Below are positions 50,914-55,282 of a stretch of DNA of 64,000 nucleotides, one piece after another. Source of the DNA: an uncultured Fibrobacteraceae bacterium (GTDB lineage Bacteria > Krumholzibacteriota > Krumholzibacteriia > LZORAL124-64-63). The stretch covers positions 23,697 through 87,696 of the forward strand of contig CAZSNA010000001.1 in the NCBI GenBank assembly GCA_964607825.1, in the 5' to 3' direction. Within the stretch, counting starts at the first letter, position 1. Each line of letters begins with the position of its first letter. The position numbers were made by a program, and so were the translations under genes. The notes under the pieces are model-generated. The model was given only the letters and a program-made list of their open reading frames with translations, was not told the origin of the DNA and ran no database searches.

Positions 50914-52344
50914 CTAGGACTCGGCCTGCTCCTCCGAGAGCTGGGCGGCCTTCTCGTACTGCCGCAGCTTCTCGCGCAGGGTCTGGCGGGAGATGCCGAG
51001 GATCCGCGCGGCCTTTGACTTGTTGTTGCCGGTCTTCTCGAGGGTGTAGACGATCTGCTTCTGCTCCACCTCCGACAGGGCGACCAGGCCCACCGAGGCG
51101 CCGTGGGTGGCGTCGGCGGGCGCGCGGGGATCGCGTCCCTCGGCGATGTGGGGCGGGAAGTGCGAGAGCTTCAGCTCGGCCGGCTCCTCGAGGATCATGA
51201 TCCGCTTCAGCACGTTCTTCAGCTCGCGCACGTTGCCCGGCCAGGGGTAGCGCTGAAGGGCGAGCACCAGCTTCTCGTCCGGGGGCGCGGTGTCCAGGCC
51301 CAGCTTGGCGTTCAGGTCCTCCACGAAGTGGGCCAGCAGCACGCCCACGTCGTCGGGACGTTCGCGCAGGGGCGGGATGTGCACCTCCACCACCTGCAGA
51401 CGGTAGTAGAGGTCGTTGCGGAAGGCGCCGGACTGGATGGCCTCGTCCAGGTCGCGGTTGGTGGCCGCGACGATGCGCGCGCTGACGTTCAGCTCCTCCT
51501 TGCCGCCCACGCGACGGAAGGTGCGGTTCTCGATCACGCGCAGCAGGCGGCTCTGGAGCAGGATGCCCATCTCGCCGATCTCGTCCAGGAAGATGGTCCC
51601 CTGGCCGGCCAGCTCGAACAGGCCCTCCTTGCGCGACTTGGCGTCGGTGAAGGCGCCCTTCTCGTGTCCCATCAGCTCGCTCTCGAGCAGCGACTCGGGC
51701 ACCGCCGCGCAGTTGATCTCCATGAAGGGCTCGCCGCGACGCTCGCTGGCCTCGTGGATGGCCCGCGCCACGATCTCCTTGCCGCTGCCCGACTCGCCCT
51801 GGATCAGCACCGAGGTGTCGTTGCCGGCCTTGCTGGAGCCCACCTTGTCCAGCAGCTCGGCGATGCCGGACAGGCCGGGGCAGGCGCGGATCAGACCCAT
51901 GTAATGGGGCGCGGTCGTGGGCGCCGGACGGGCTCGTCGCGGTGCGGCCTTCTCCTCGGGTTCGGCGGGCGGCTCCATGCGGCCGACGCGTAGGGCGGTG
52001 GCGACCTGGCGTCGCATGTCGCTCAGCTTGAAGGGTTTCTGGGTGAAGTCGTAGGCGCCCAGGCGCATGGACTCCACCGCCGTGTCCACGTCGCCGTAGG
52101 CGGTCATCATGATCACCGGCGTGTGGAGGTTCTGGTTGCGCAGGGCCTGCAGCAGCTCCAGGCCGGAGACGTTGGGCATCTTCAGGTCCGTCACGACCAG
52201 GTCGTAGGTCTCGGTGTTGAGCTTGGCCAGGGCCTCCTCGCCGGTCTCGGCGGCGTCGGTCTCGTAGCCGTCGGCGTCCAGGGCCTCGGCCAGGGACAGG
52301 CGGATGGCGGCCTCGTCGTCGACGATCAGGATGCGGTGGGTCAT
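50914..52344 (-). CDS. fleR: Sigma54-dependent response regulator (NtrC family; FleR/FlrC-like): receiver, AAA+ and Fis-HTH domains
   Basis: REC with phospho-acceptor in LVVTDLKMPNVSGLELL, Walker A GESGSGKEIVARAIH, GAFTDA motif, HTH KSKAARILGISRQTLREKLRQY. 4-nt overlap with the upstream kinase gene. Confidence 0.85.
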   Translation of the reverse strand: MTHRILIVDDEAAIRLSLAEALDADGYETDAAETGEEALAKLNTETYDLVVTDLKMPNVSGLELLQALRNQNLHTPVIMMTAYGDVDTAVESMRLGAYDFTQKPFKLSDMRRQVATALRVGRMEPPAEPEEKAAPRRARPAPTTAPHYMGLIRACPGLSGIAELLDKVGSSKAGNDTSVLIQGESGSGKEIVARAIHEASERRGEPFMEINCAAVPESLLESELMGHEKGAFTDAKSRKEGLFELAGQGTIFLDEIGEMGILLQSRLLRVIENRTFRRVGGKEELNVSARIVAATNRDLDEAIQSGAFRNDLYYRLQVVEVHIPPLRERPDDVGVLLAHFVEDLNAKLGLDTAPPDEKLVLALQRYPWPGNVRELKNVLKRIMILEEPAELKLSHFPPHIAEGRDPRAPADATHGASVGLVALSEVEQKQIVYTLEKTGNNKSKAARILGISRQTLREKLRQYEKAAQLSEEQAES

Positions 52345-54674
52345 GACATCTCCTGTTCCTGGGCGGCCGGTGCGGTCTCCTCGGAGTCCCGCAAGTCGGG
52401 CAACAAGATGGCGAAAATGGTGCCGTTCCCGTCGCAGTCGACGGAAATGCGGCCGGCGTGGGCCTTGACGATCTTGCGGCAGATGGACAAGCCCAGGCCC
52501 GTGCCTGAGTTCTTGGTCGTGTAGAAGGGACGGAAGATGCGGTCGCGGTCCGCGGGCGCCACGCCGGGCCCCTCGTCCGTGACCGCGAGACGGAAACCGG
52601 GGCGCACGCGGGACTCCCCGCTCACGGGGTCGTCCACCAGCAGGTCGTCCACGCGGGTCAGGGTGGCCGAGACGGTGCCGCCGGCGGGCGAGGCGTCCAC
52701 GGCGTTGAACAGCAGGTTCAGCACCACCTGCTTGAGCTGGGTGCCGTCGGCCGCGAGGGTCGCGCTCTCGCCGCGGGGCAGGTCGCGCCCCAGGCCCAGC
52801 CGCACGTCCTTGTCGTCGGCGCGGGGGCGCGCCAGCACCAGGCTGTCGCGCAGCAGGCGGTCGAGGTCCACGTGGCCGAGTTCGGGTTCGTAGGGGCGCA
52901 CGAACTGGAGCATGCGGGTGATGGTGTCGTTGATCCGGCCCACCTCGCCGGTGATCACGTCGATGTAGCGGCGGCGCGGGTCGTCGTCCTCCAGGTTGTC
53001 GCCGAGCAGTTCGGCCTGGGCGCTCAGGCCCATCAGCGGATTGCGGATCTCGTGGGCCAGGGCCGCCGACATCTCCACCAGGCTCTCCAGGGCGTCGGCG
53101 CGGCGGGTCTCCTGGGCCAGCCGCTTGACCGGGCGGAGGTCCTCCAGCACGACCACGCGCCAGAGCTCGTCGCGGGCGCGGCCCGGCATCAGGTGGGCCT
53201 GGACCATCACCGGGACCGCGGTGCCGTCCGCGCGCACGACCCGCCCCTCCCCGTAGAAGGGCTCGGGATCCTCGTGCTTGAAGGCGGCCAGGGCCGGCCC
53301 CTCCTGGTCCTCCAGGCGCAGCATGGCGTCCAGGAGCAGTTCCGGCAGACCCTCCAGGTGGAAGGTGTCGCGGCGGAAGAAGGCCGAGGTGGACCCGGTG
53401 TCGTCGGGGTGGCGACCGCGTCCGAGGGCCGTGTCGGGCTCCGTGATGATGCGCGGCGCTTGGGCGCGGCCGGTGACCAGTTCGCGGCCGCCCCGGTTGC
53501 AGAAGATGGTGCGGCCCAGGTCGTCCAGAACCCAGATGCCGCTGTCCACCGCCTCGAGCACCCGCGAATTGAAGGTGCCGAGCTCGCGCATGCGGTCGAG
53601 CATCTGGGCCGCCGCCACCTCCTCGGCCAGGATGATCTGGGCGGTGCGCAGGAAGGCGAGCTGGCCGCTGGTGGCCGTGCGCGGCTGGAAGTCCAGCAGC
53701 AGCAGGTAGCCGAGGCAGGCGTGCATGTGGTCCAGGGACAGGGCCGCCACCACGGGCAGCGTGTCGTCGCGCTCCGCTTCGGGTTCCAGGGTGATCACGA
53801 CGGGCTCGCCGGGATCCCCGTCCTCGCGCCGGCGTTCGGCCTCGAGACGGGTCAGCACCCGGTCCCAGCCCTCCTCGTTCCAGTGGAAGGTCTGGCGGGG
53901 CGCGAAGGGGGCGTCGGGCGCGGGACGCAGCACCAGGGCGGCGCCCTGGGCGCCCACGAAGTCGGCCATGGTGCCCAGGAGCGACTCGAGGGTGCTGTCC
54001 CAGTTGGGCGTGGTGCTCAGCTCGCGCACGATGGTGTAGAGCAGCGAGAGCTGGTCCATGTGCTCGGTCAGGGCCTGGTTGGCCTCTTCCAGGCGCAGGT
54101 GCGAACGGGCCAGATCGTCACCGGCGCGCACGAGTTCCACCTGCAGGCGTTGACGGTGCTCGAGCAGCCGCTCGGTGGTCTCCTGCTGGGCGGCCTCGAG
54201 ACGATCCGCCTCGTCGAAGACGGCCAGACGCGCGCCAACCCGCTGGAGCAGGTCTTCCCACGCCGCGTCGTCGCCCAGGGGGATCGCGTCGAAGAGGCCG
54301 GCGCGGAAGCAGGCCGGCAAGAGCAGGTCCTCGCTGCCGTCATGGAGCAGGACCGGCAAGGCGGCGGGGTTGATCACGCGCAGGGCCCGCACGAGTTCGG
54401 GCAGATCCGCGGCGGCGCGTCGTTCGCGCGTCAGGGGCAGGATCACGAGCATGGGCCGGGGCCCGTCGGACGCTCTCGCGCGCAAGTCCACGAGCAGATC
54501 GCTCGCCGCGGCGTGGAAGATCAACTCGTCGGTCGTGGCCGGAACCAGGTCGGTCCAGGCGGAATCCGCGACCACGAGAATGGGAAATCGATCCGGATCT
54601 CGATCTGAAAAACGAAGTGGCACGCCGCCCCCCGAGCGCTCGAGTCGTCGATCACTGGAACCGCTGTCGGACAA
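52341..54674 (-). CDS. fleS: Cytoplasmic sensor histidine kinase (FleS/FlrB-like) with a long N-terminal region (pseudo-receiver-like plus PAS/GAF-like). Apparently a TTG start
   Basis: HisKA H-box LAHEIRNPLMGLSAQAELL, HATPase_c N/G boxes (NLLFNAVDASPAGG…DEGPGV…GTGLGLSICRKIV). No TM helices seen. An in-frame TAA lies 9 codons upstream of the TTG. Confidence 0.8.
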   Translation of the reverse strand: MSDSGSSDRRLERSGGGVPLRFSDRDPDRFPILVVADSAWTDLVPATTDELIFHAAASDLLVDLRARASDGPRPMLVILPLTRERRAAADLPELVRALRVINPAALPVLLHDGSEDLLLPACFRAGLFDAIPLGDDAAWEDLLQRVGARLAVFDEADRLEAAQQETTERLLEHRQRLQVELVRAGDDLARSHLRLEEANQALTEHMDQLSLLYTIVRELSTTPNWDSTLESLLGTMADFVGAQGAALVLRPAPDAPFAPRQTFHWNEEGWDRVLTRLEAERRREDGDPGEPVVITLEPEAERDDTLPVVAALSLDHMHACLGYLLLLDFQPRTATSGQLAFLRTAQIILAEEVAAAQMLDRMRELGTFNSRVLEAVDSGIWVLDDLGRTIFCNRGGRELVTGRAQAPRIITEPDTALGRGRHPDDTGSTSAFFRRDTFHLEGLPELLLDAMLRLEDQEGPALAAFKHEDPEPFYGEGRVVRADGTAVPVMVQAHLMPGRARDELWRVVVLEDLRPVKRLAQETRRADALESLVEMSAALAHEIRNPLMGLSAQAELLGDNLEDDDPRRRYIDVITGEVGRINDTITRMLQFVRPYEPELGHVDLDRLLRDSLVLARPRADDKDVRLGLGRDLPRGESATLAADGTQLKQVVLNLLFNAVDASPAGGTVSATLTRVDDLLVDDPVSGESRVRPGFRLAVTDEGPGVAPADRDRIFRPFYTTKNSGTGLGLSICRKIVKAHAGRISVDCDGNGTIFAILLPDLRDSEETAPAAQEQEMS

Positions 54675-54778
54675 GGAGTAACGGACAGACTGTAAGGTTT
54701 CTTACCAGACGCGGCAAGTCAACATCTATCTGAGTTGGGCAGGAAAAGAGACGTTTCGGTCGGTGGGAGCGCCCCGCT

Positions 54779-55153: not shown

Positions 55154-55254
55154 CTGGGCTTCGCTCCTGGGTCTCGTGGGTTCGGACTCGGAATCAGGGC
55201 CATGCTAGCAAGGCCGGGACCAGGCGACAAGGTCGGCGACGCTGCGTGTAGTGG

Positions 55255-55282
55255 TTATCGGACGAGAGGGCATTATCTTTAG
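55255..55282 (-). promoter_or_regulatory. Sigma28 (FliA) promoter for flgM: TAAAGATA-N11-tCCGATAA on the minus strand
   Basis: Reverse complement of ttatcggacgagagggcattatcttta. Spacer is exactly 11 nt. About 95-nt leader to the flgM ATG. Confidence 0.6.

Follow-up and report, generated by a model that had tools for sequence, protein, structure and literature searches.

When the gene for an anti-sigma-28 factor, flgM, lies directly ahead of a two-component pair that activates sigma-54 promoters, do the three genes form one transcription unit, so that the late flagellar tier feeds back on the middle tier, or are they neighbours with promoters of their own? The question is raised by a 64,000-nucleotide (nt) stretch of an uncultured bacterium of the Krumholzibacteriota (contig CAZSNA010000001.1 of assembly GCA_964607825.1, positions 23,697 to 87,696 of the forward strand), hereafter the window, which has about 70% GC and carries a very large flagellar cluster on its minus strand. 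There flgM is followed by genes for a cytoplasmic histidine kinase and an NtrC-family sigma-54 activator. A first-pass annotation of the sequence had put all three behind a sigma-28 promoter and had proposed a feedback loop between the sigma-28 and sigma-54 tiers. Our comparison with related loci suggests otherwise: flgM and the kinase–activator pair were probably built as two transcription units of a FlgSR-type hierarchy, with read-through from the first into the second as a lineage-specific extra. The ancestral and still dominant design would be flgM under sigma-28 and sigma-54 promoters, a terminator, the kinase–activator unit with its own promoter, a second terminator and a sigma-54-driven rod/hook operon. 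Adjacency alone would point to a feedback loop, but the comparative data do not back one.

Two sets of loci were compared with the window. The first came from exact-protein contig look-ups of kinase homologs, with identities from 100% down to ~42%: nine contigs, of which eight have DNA. The 50 loci of the second were found by scanning metagenomes with an alignment of the kinase sensor region, which is specific to the lineage. The order flgM, kinase, activator, a gene of 355 amino acids (aa), a flgN-like gene and flgB is kept over this whole range of kinase identity. In L088, L090 and L091 an additional small kinase, or another kinase/activator pair, is inserted ahead of flgB, and the rest of the order is kept.

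The gap between flgM and the kinase gene

The gap contains a promoter-like element with the consensus TTGC-N6-TGGtaAatAacTTTACAgT (also written TTGC-N6-TGGTAAATAAnTTTACAGT), which reads as TTGCnn, a spacer of exactly 17 nt and TACAGT. It is exact in the window and in seven loci of the first set, and it occurs with at most one mismatch over its 11 fixed positions in 48 of 48 metagenome loci with enough upstream DNA, giving a total of 56 loci and 46 distinct sequences. The TTG of the -35 element hardly varies, nor do the T, A and T at the main positions of the -10 element. Conservation ends directly downstream, as expected at a transcription start, and in the seven relatives that have gene calls the TTAC end of the element is separated from the start codon of the kinase by 52-75 nt. 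The element is single-copy in the 64 kb (0.09 matches expected with one mismatch; 0.0 in shuffles for the exact pattern), and no second copy was found in ~390 kb of related loci. Canonical promoters elsewhere in the same genome (TTGACA-N17-TAACAT and TTGGCC-N17-TATAAT) make this geometry plausible for the housekeeping sigma factor. A single operon would call for a gap that holds no independent promoter; the predicted promoter is at odds with that.

Promoters of the flagellar sigma factors are missing from the same place. No sigma-54 or sigma-28 motif was found in the flgM–kinase gap of 44 distinct loci except for one chance-level match, and the gap of the first 8 loci has no GG-N10-GC directly before the kinase gene of the kind known for fleSR and flrBC.

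Several other assignments of the element were considered and set aside. As a sigma-54 promoter it has the wrong spacing (TGG-N9-TTAC) and misses the GC, and TTGC is never read in that position in the 46 distinct sequences. As a -35 element (TTTACA) with a -10 element further down it is ruled out by the lack of conservation downstream, and as an extended -10 element (TGGTAAATA) it is unlikely with the -7 T missing. A repeated activator-binding site does not agree with its occurring once.

The region between flgM and the element was then compared for termination signals. After flgM, the 44 distinct loci have a strong hairpin with a T-tract in 33 cases, a moderate one in 7 and a weak one or none in 4, the strong hairpins having free energies (dG) of -13 to about -31 kcal/mol. 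The last group consists of the window, its close relatives L084 and L085, and L139. That there is no clear terminator after flgM, as reported at first pass, holds for the window, where the best hairpin with a T-tract has a dG of -0.6 and the fold of the gap does not stand out from shuffled sequences (z -0.09). The gap has a mild excess of C over G (21 vs 14), which speaks neither for nor against Rho-dependent termination. By this comparison the intrinsic terminator after flgM appears to have decayed in the clade of the window, so that transcripts starting at the flgM promoters may run on into the kinase gene there. Since strong terminators follow flgM in 33 of the 44 loci, co-transcription is not the conserved design.

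The length of the gap also had to be revised. The first-pass figure of 104 nt hinges on a TTG start at 54674, which lacks a Shine-Dalgarno sequence, whereas both the kinase orthologs and the gene call in the database place the start 17-33 codons further in. The kinase probably starts at GTG 54623, which is preceded by GGGGGG and gives a gap of 155 nt; the distance is 150-167 nt in six of seven relatives and 266 nt in L090. The adjacency and common strand of the genes are real in the window.

One flgM–kinase–activator operon, driven mainly by the sigma-28 (and sigma-54) promoter and making the activator dependent on the late tier in a feedback loop, is unlikely in the light of these data. It would account for three genes on a common strand with only 155 nt after flgM, an adjacency conserved across the lineage, and the window, L084 and L085 do lack a credible intrinsic terminator. 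However, it leaves unexplained why every relative has a conserved promoter-like element in the gap and why a strong terminator stands between flgM and that element in 33 of 44 loci, and Rho-dependent termination in the untranslated gap is also possible. The claim of co-transcription is therefore upheld in part: the window has no terminator and read-through may occur, but the conserved gap element and the terminators of most relatives do not fit it. An independent promoter together with termination, the combination named at first pass as separating the units, is largely borne out lineage-wide by the comparative evidence; the window keeps the promoter-like element but has lost the terminator.

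The spacer of the element (TGGTAAATAA) is A-rich, contains an imperfect inverted repeat, GTAAn-N4-nTTAC, and may be an operator. It is possible, though we consider it quite unlikely, that the element is not a promoter at all but an operator or control site, for example for a dimeric regulator bound to the inverted repeat, or a transcript signal that gates read-through from flgM. Conservation of the spacer beyond what sigma-70 needs, the single-copy occurrence and a compensatory change in the repeat (GTAAG-AAAC-CTTAC in the window, GTAAA-TAAT-TTTAC in L088 and L089) are consistent with such a site. The near-invariant -35 and -10 positions at a spacing of exactly 17 nt argue for a promoter instead, and a gate is difficult to reconcile with the persistence of the element behind strong terminators, where there is nothing to gate. 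An RNA signal is disfavoured by the 5-bp AU-rich stem, which is too weak for a stable RNA structure, and by the Rfam search of 50700-55700 (E up to 1), which returned zero known RNA elements. A more ambitious and rather speculative idea, to which we assign a low probability, is that the element does more than a housekeeping promoter. As a control site found once per locus throughout the lineage, it would be a promoter for another sigma factor or a promoter–operator fusion and would set the level of a lineage-specific flagellar checkpoint kinase, with read-through feedback added in the window's clade by the loss of the flgM terminator. If this is true, positive autoregulation and late-tier feedback would be combined in a way that is not known from any model flagellar system.

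Two predicted promoters ahead of flgM

The consensus sigma-28 promoter reported before flgM is borne out by the motif search. Against the consensus TAAA-N15-GCCGATAA (12 positions), the site matches at 11 positions, and the pattern TAAAG-N15/16-CCGATA occurs only twice in the 64 kb, ahead of flgM and ahead of the divergent fliC, where 0.00 matches are expected from dinucleotide shuffles. In seven of the first eight loci (the eighth, L087, matches at 9 of 12 positions) and in most metagenome loci, a sigma-28-like motif matching at 10 or more of 12 positions is found at a conserved distance from flgM. With a late flagellar gene behind it and fliA in the window, the motif has the setting expected of a FliA-type promoter. 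In the clade of L090 and L091, a sigma-28-like motif (TCAAGT-N-CGATAA) is found ~240 nt upstream of flgM, compared with ~100 nt elsewhere. An AT-rich, ATATGC-like repeat (ATTATGCGGATTATATGC) at 55282-55305 of the minus strand abuts the -35 element of the flgM promoter in the window, as its counterparts do in L085 and L089; it may act as an UP-like element or as a site for a regulator.

Between the sigma-28 promoter and flgM we found a second candidate promoter, of the sigma-54 type, with the pattern GG-N10-GC (TGGCAC-N5-TTGC). In the window alone this pattern is not above chance (3 found vs 2.14 expected), and a weighted scan with the sigma-54 consensus of this single sequence of 70% GC gave no more matches than the shuffles did; the call rests on positional conservation for that reason. 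In 8 of 8 first loci, the distance from the GC of the motif to the flgM start codon downstream is 51-63 nt. A strict match was found in 26 of 31 distinct loci, against a background of 4% per 60-nt zone, and four of the remaining five have a GGA variant. In the fifth, L111, a strict match falls just beyond the upstream edge of the scanned zone.

The statement that all three genes stand behind a sigma-28 promoter was thus correct about the motif and incomplete about the locus, leaving out both the conserved sigma-54 promoter and the gap element. As for the feedback loop proposed to run through the kinase–activator pair, the comparative data point to separate units, and the conserved cross-tier wiring sits at flgM itself. 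A dual sigma-28/sigma-54 input to flgM is already known from Campylobacter jejuni, and on our analysis the locus would not contain a new regulatory loop.

The identity of flgM itself is supported by its orthologs. The window protein falls short of curated cut-offs, with an E-value of 4.5e-7 and 30.5 bits against TIGR03824 (cut-off 40.75) and an E-value of 0.0016 and 19 bits against PF04316 (cut-off 25). Each of the 24 flgM orthologs scanned gives a match to PF04316 (best E 5e-10), and a profile built from the orthologs matches PDB 9wsf_B, annotated as 'Negative regulator of flagellin synthesis' (E 1.8e-5). We therefore accept the protein as a FlgM family member despite the low scores of the single sequence. 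Its predicted role as a FliA-binding factor exported by the type III apparatus fits the context, with fliA in the window and a sigma-28 promoter upstream.

The kinase–activator pair and the operon behind it

The first-pass description of the kinase as cytoplasmic and of its partner as an NtrC-family sigma-54 activator is confirmed by the domain searches. In the kinase, HisKA and HATPase_c domains were recognised. Its sequence contains no hydrophobic stretch (the highest 19-residue Kyte-Doolittle mean is 1.5), and its AlphaFold2 (AF2) model, with a mean pLDDT of 74.9, shows no membrane helix. The secondary structure of the model suggests a layout of receiver-like module, coiled coil, GAF-like domain, PAS-like domain, DHp and CA, in which the receiver-like alpha/beta module covers approximately residues 31-132 (numbered from the 54674 start), the coiled coil has 86 residues and the PAS-like domain carries a disordered insert. 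The receiver-like module has a five-fold beta-alpha pattern and no acidic residue after the third strand (MLVILPLT), and in the model it looks like a pseudo-receiver. Named full-length orthologs (E up to ~1e-133) are labelled only Krumholzibacteria (Candidatus Krumholzibacteria, Krumholzibacteriia) or 'bacterium', and below them the matches fall sharply to generic kinases. The matches that carry names have 42-50% identity, and by their labels the organism probably belongs to this uncultured lineage. The N-terminal ~500 aa find full-length homologs only among unnamed or Krumholzibacteria/'bacterium' proteins. The kinase thus resembles FleS, FlrB and FlgS in being cytoplasmic and paired with a flagellar enhancer-binding protein (EBP), but it does not belong to their family by sequence or architecture, as only its generic HisKA/HATPase core matches known models.

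The activator has the receiver aspartate, AAA+ domain and helix-turn-helix of a sigma-54 enhancer-binding response regulator. The D-x-x-M-P receiver motif (VTDLKMP-type) is present in the window protein and in four of seven orthologs, and the Walker A motif in all eight proteins. In the L1 loop that contacts sigma-54 (residues ~225-232), all eight read GAFTDA instead of GAFTGA, and GAFTDA is among the loop variants expected to keep sigma-54 activation (PMC4641369). Against the NCBIfam models of FlgR and FlbD the activator scores 303.5 and 326 bits, far from the cut-off of 750 for each, and its best models, AtoC (430 bits) and NtrC (404 bits), are also below their own cut-offs. Membership in FleR, FlrC, FlgR or FlbD is therefore unsupported by sequence, and the flagellar role that we propose for the activator is inferred from its context.

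The two genes are closely joined. The reported 4-nt overlap is the ATGA at 52341-52344; an overlap of 1-4 nt is kept in seven loci with DNA, and on the P0039 contig the genes are 24 nt apart. The strong terminator noted at the end of the pair was missed by our automated terminator scan and confirmed by folding, and equivalent hairpins are present in L084, L085, L087 and L088. Right after it comes a sigma-54 motif (GGCAyG-N4-TTGCga) in 8 of 8 loci, 41-49 nt from the ATG of the 355-aa gene (87 nt in L090), which we take as the promoter of the operon leading to flgB and fliF. Both this site and the one at flgM have the motif and the conserved position of sigma-54 promoters.

In the arrangement that we favour, flgM would be transcribed from tandem predicted promoters, the distal one for sigma-28 and the proximal one for sigma-54, and FlgM would be made at the middle tier and again at the late tier once FliA is free, allowing it to be pre-loaded and to autoregulate. 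The kinase and the activator would be translationally coupled and read mainly from their own TTGCnn-17-TACAGT promoter, whose geometry is sigma-70-like. The kinase would report the state of flagellar assembly, and the phosphorylated activator would turn on two sigma-54 promoters, those serving flgM and the flgN-like/rod/MS-ring operon. In the window's clade, read-through from both flgM promoters may add sigma-54 positive autoregulation and sigma-28 late-tier input to the pair, as a possible secondary route into the kinase gene.

Several points weigh against this arrangement. The candidate promoter in the gap is deduced from conservation and geometry, and its conserved spacer is atypical for a plain sigma-70 promoter. 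The window has no terminator after flgM, and read-through could be substantial here. Moreover, rpoN is absent from the 64 kb, no shared upstream activator site was seen by eye near the two sigma-54 promoters, and either of the two EBPs of the window, the activator of the pair or the one encoded at 24163-25743, might drive these promoters.

The lack of a visible shared site is also consistent with a different role for the pair, raised in part at first pass, in which it is linked to the cluster by position only and regulates other targets, such as filament or glycosylation genes or non-flagellar ones, while the EBP at 24163-25743, which lacks a REC domain, drives the flagellar sigma-54 promoters. 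Better scores of the activator against the AtoC and NtrC models than against FlgR and FlbD, and the second small kinase and REC-containing EBP that distant relatives have immediately upstream of flgB, point in the same direction. We nevertheless find this role improbable: the pair is placed strictly between flgM and the sigma-54-driven rod operon in every locus examined, the conserved sigma-54 promoter of the flgB-fliF operon lies directly downstream of it, and the window lineage has no second pair, which leaves this one as the only two-component EBP of the cluster.

Relation to known flagellar hierarchies and surrounding genes

The separately promoted pair can be compared with three known hierarchies. 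fleSR of Pseudomonas aeruginosa and flrBC of Vibrio cholerae are sigma-54-dependent class II genes. For flrBC this classification is given in bioRxiv 10.1101/2022.07.21.500047. As no sigma-54 or sigma-28 promoter was found on the pair, including the GG-N10-GC promoter sought before the kinase in 44 loci (one chance-level match), the locus is unlike Pseudomonas and Vibrio and like the class I FlgSR of Campylobacter. The order of the genes also departs from the gammaproteobacterial one, the whole fla/che-like cluster here lying on one strand. What it shares with FleQ-FleS/FleR and FlrA-FlrB/FlrC is a two-component sigma-54 activator together with a REC-less EBP in the cluster, and a late sigma-28/FlgM tier. 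In Salmonella, the middle tier consists of FlhDC with sigma-70, with no two-component system; the likeness to the present locus is the transcription of flgM at a middle and a late tier (class 2 and class 3 promoters).

The closest parallels are with C. jejuni and Helicobacter pylori. Here, too, the cytoplasmic kinase and the NtrC-family activator would seem to have a promoter that is neither sigma-54 nor sigma-28 (class I style). As in C. jejuni, rod/hook genes stand behind sigma-54 promoters, flgM has sigma-54 and sigma-28 input and a CsrA/FliW module lies beside the flagellin genes. The kinase and activator genes are adjacent, overlapping and directly downstream of flgM here, whereas in C. 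jejuni flgS and flgR lie apart from each other. In that species, flgM has RpoN-dependent transcription and its own FliA promoter (PMC11187230), and the preprint of the same paper, in line with established knowledge, places flgS and flgR among the sigma-70 class I genes. The C. jejuni flgM is transcribed along with sigma-54 genes lying upstream of it; the present flgM has a predicted sigma-54 promoter to itself. The kinase differs as well, with ~760 aa and receiver-like, coiled-coil, GAF-like and PAS-like modules, and the activator keeps HTH_8 and has GAFTDA.

The locus offers a wiring diagram, backed by comparison, for a lineage that has not been cultured, made up of a dual-promoter flgM, a separately promoted pair and a sigma-54 rod/MS-ring operon, and suggests that Campylobacter-like logic recurs far outside the Campylobacterota. 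In the literature searched we located no analysis of flagellar regulation in Krumholzibacteriota; some papers mention both terms. Two details of the locus are unusual: its checkpoint-type kinase, which is specific to the lineage, and its candidate promoter/operator, which is invariant and single-copy. The sensor region of the kinase together with this element could serve as handles on the assembly signal that checkpoint kinases read.

Table 1. Features of the flagellar cluster, in coordinates of the 64-kb window
Feature	Coordinates	Strand	Remarks
Gene order	from 55153 down	-	flgM-like, histidine kinase, REC/AAA+/HTH_8 sigma-54 activator, 355-aa gene, flgN-like
Sigma-28 (FliA)-type promoter of flgM	55255-55281	-	TAAAGATAATGCCCTCTCGTCCGATAA; ~100 nt upstream of ATG
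Sigma-54-type promoter of flgM	55206-55222	-	cTGGTCCCGGCCTTGCTA; GG-N10-GC, between the sigma-28 promoter and flgM
flgM-like anti-sigma-28 gene	54779-55153	-	124 aa; G+C at third codon positions (GC3) 0.90
Promoter-like element of the kinase–activator unit	54689-54717	-	TTGCCG-N17-TACAGT; includes TGGTAAGAAACCTTACA
Cytoplasmic histidine kinase	52341-54623	-	HisKA and HATPase_c; open reading frame (ORF) reaches TTG 54674; about 760 aa
NtrC-family sigma-54 activator	50914-52344	-	PF00072 (REC), PF00158 (Sigma54_activat), PF25601 (AAA_lid) and PF02954 (HTH_8), all above cut-offs
Intrinsic terminator after the activator	50861-50891	-	~13-bp stem, 10-bp GC core, UUUUU; dG -35 kcal/mol, z -3.3
Sigma-54 promoter of the 355-aa/flgN-like/flgB/flgC/fliE/fliF operon	50827-50842	-	GGCATGTCGATTGCGA
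355-aa gene	49714-50781	-	N-terminal hydrophobic helix; no family match
Rod/MS-ring genes after the flgN-like gene		-	flgB, flgC, fliE, fliF and onward
Further cluster genes		-	flgD, flgE, motA, motB, fliL, fliM, fliN, fliP, fliR, flhB, flhA, flhF
fliA	26630-27574	-	TIGR02479, 269 bits, above cut-off
Second sigma-54 activator	24163-25743	-	downstream of fliA; REC-less; 150-residue uncharacterised N-terminal region; canonical GAFTGA loop
Sigma-28 promoter of divergent fliC	55435-55461	+	second TAAAG-N15/16-CCGATA match
fliC	55611-56450	+	divergent
fliD, fliS		+	divergent

The remaining genes of the cluster are listed in Table 1. According to the gene calls of the identical contig, fliT is also divergent on the plus strand, and the CsrA/FliW module adjoins the flagellin genes. 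In one clade, acetyltransferase and glycosyltransferase genes separate the flagellin genes from flgM (L090 3019-5215, L091 3227-5217). The REC-less activator gene downstream of fliA has a position that resembles that of FleQ and FlrA.

The 355-aa gene comes first after the conserved sigma-54 promoter, and its synteny is kept in all related loci; its orthologs give faint TPR matches, and it overlaps the flgN-like gene by 29 nt. The flgB ORF has no family match in the window and was assigned through weak Flg_bb_rod matches of its orthologs and its position. Between the flgN-like gene and flgB, L090 (11590-13721) and L091 (11308-13447) have an extra small kinase of ~246 aa with HATPase_c only and a second REC/sigma-54 activator, L088 (11443-12111) has retained the small kinase alone, and the window lineage has neither gene. 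This distribution suggests that two flagellar two-component EBPs were ancestral and that one was later lost. Finally, beyond the reach of the related loci, sigma-54-like motifs lie on the minus strand of the window directly upstream of fliP (TGGCACGCGCCTTGCG, 34251-34266) and of fliA (GGGCACGGAAACTGCT, 27613-27628); if the latter motif is real, fliA would be a sigma-54-dependent middle-tier gene.

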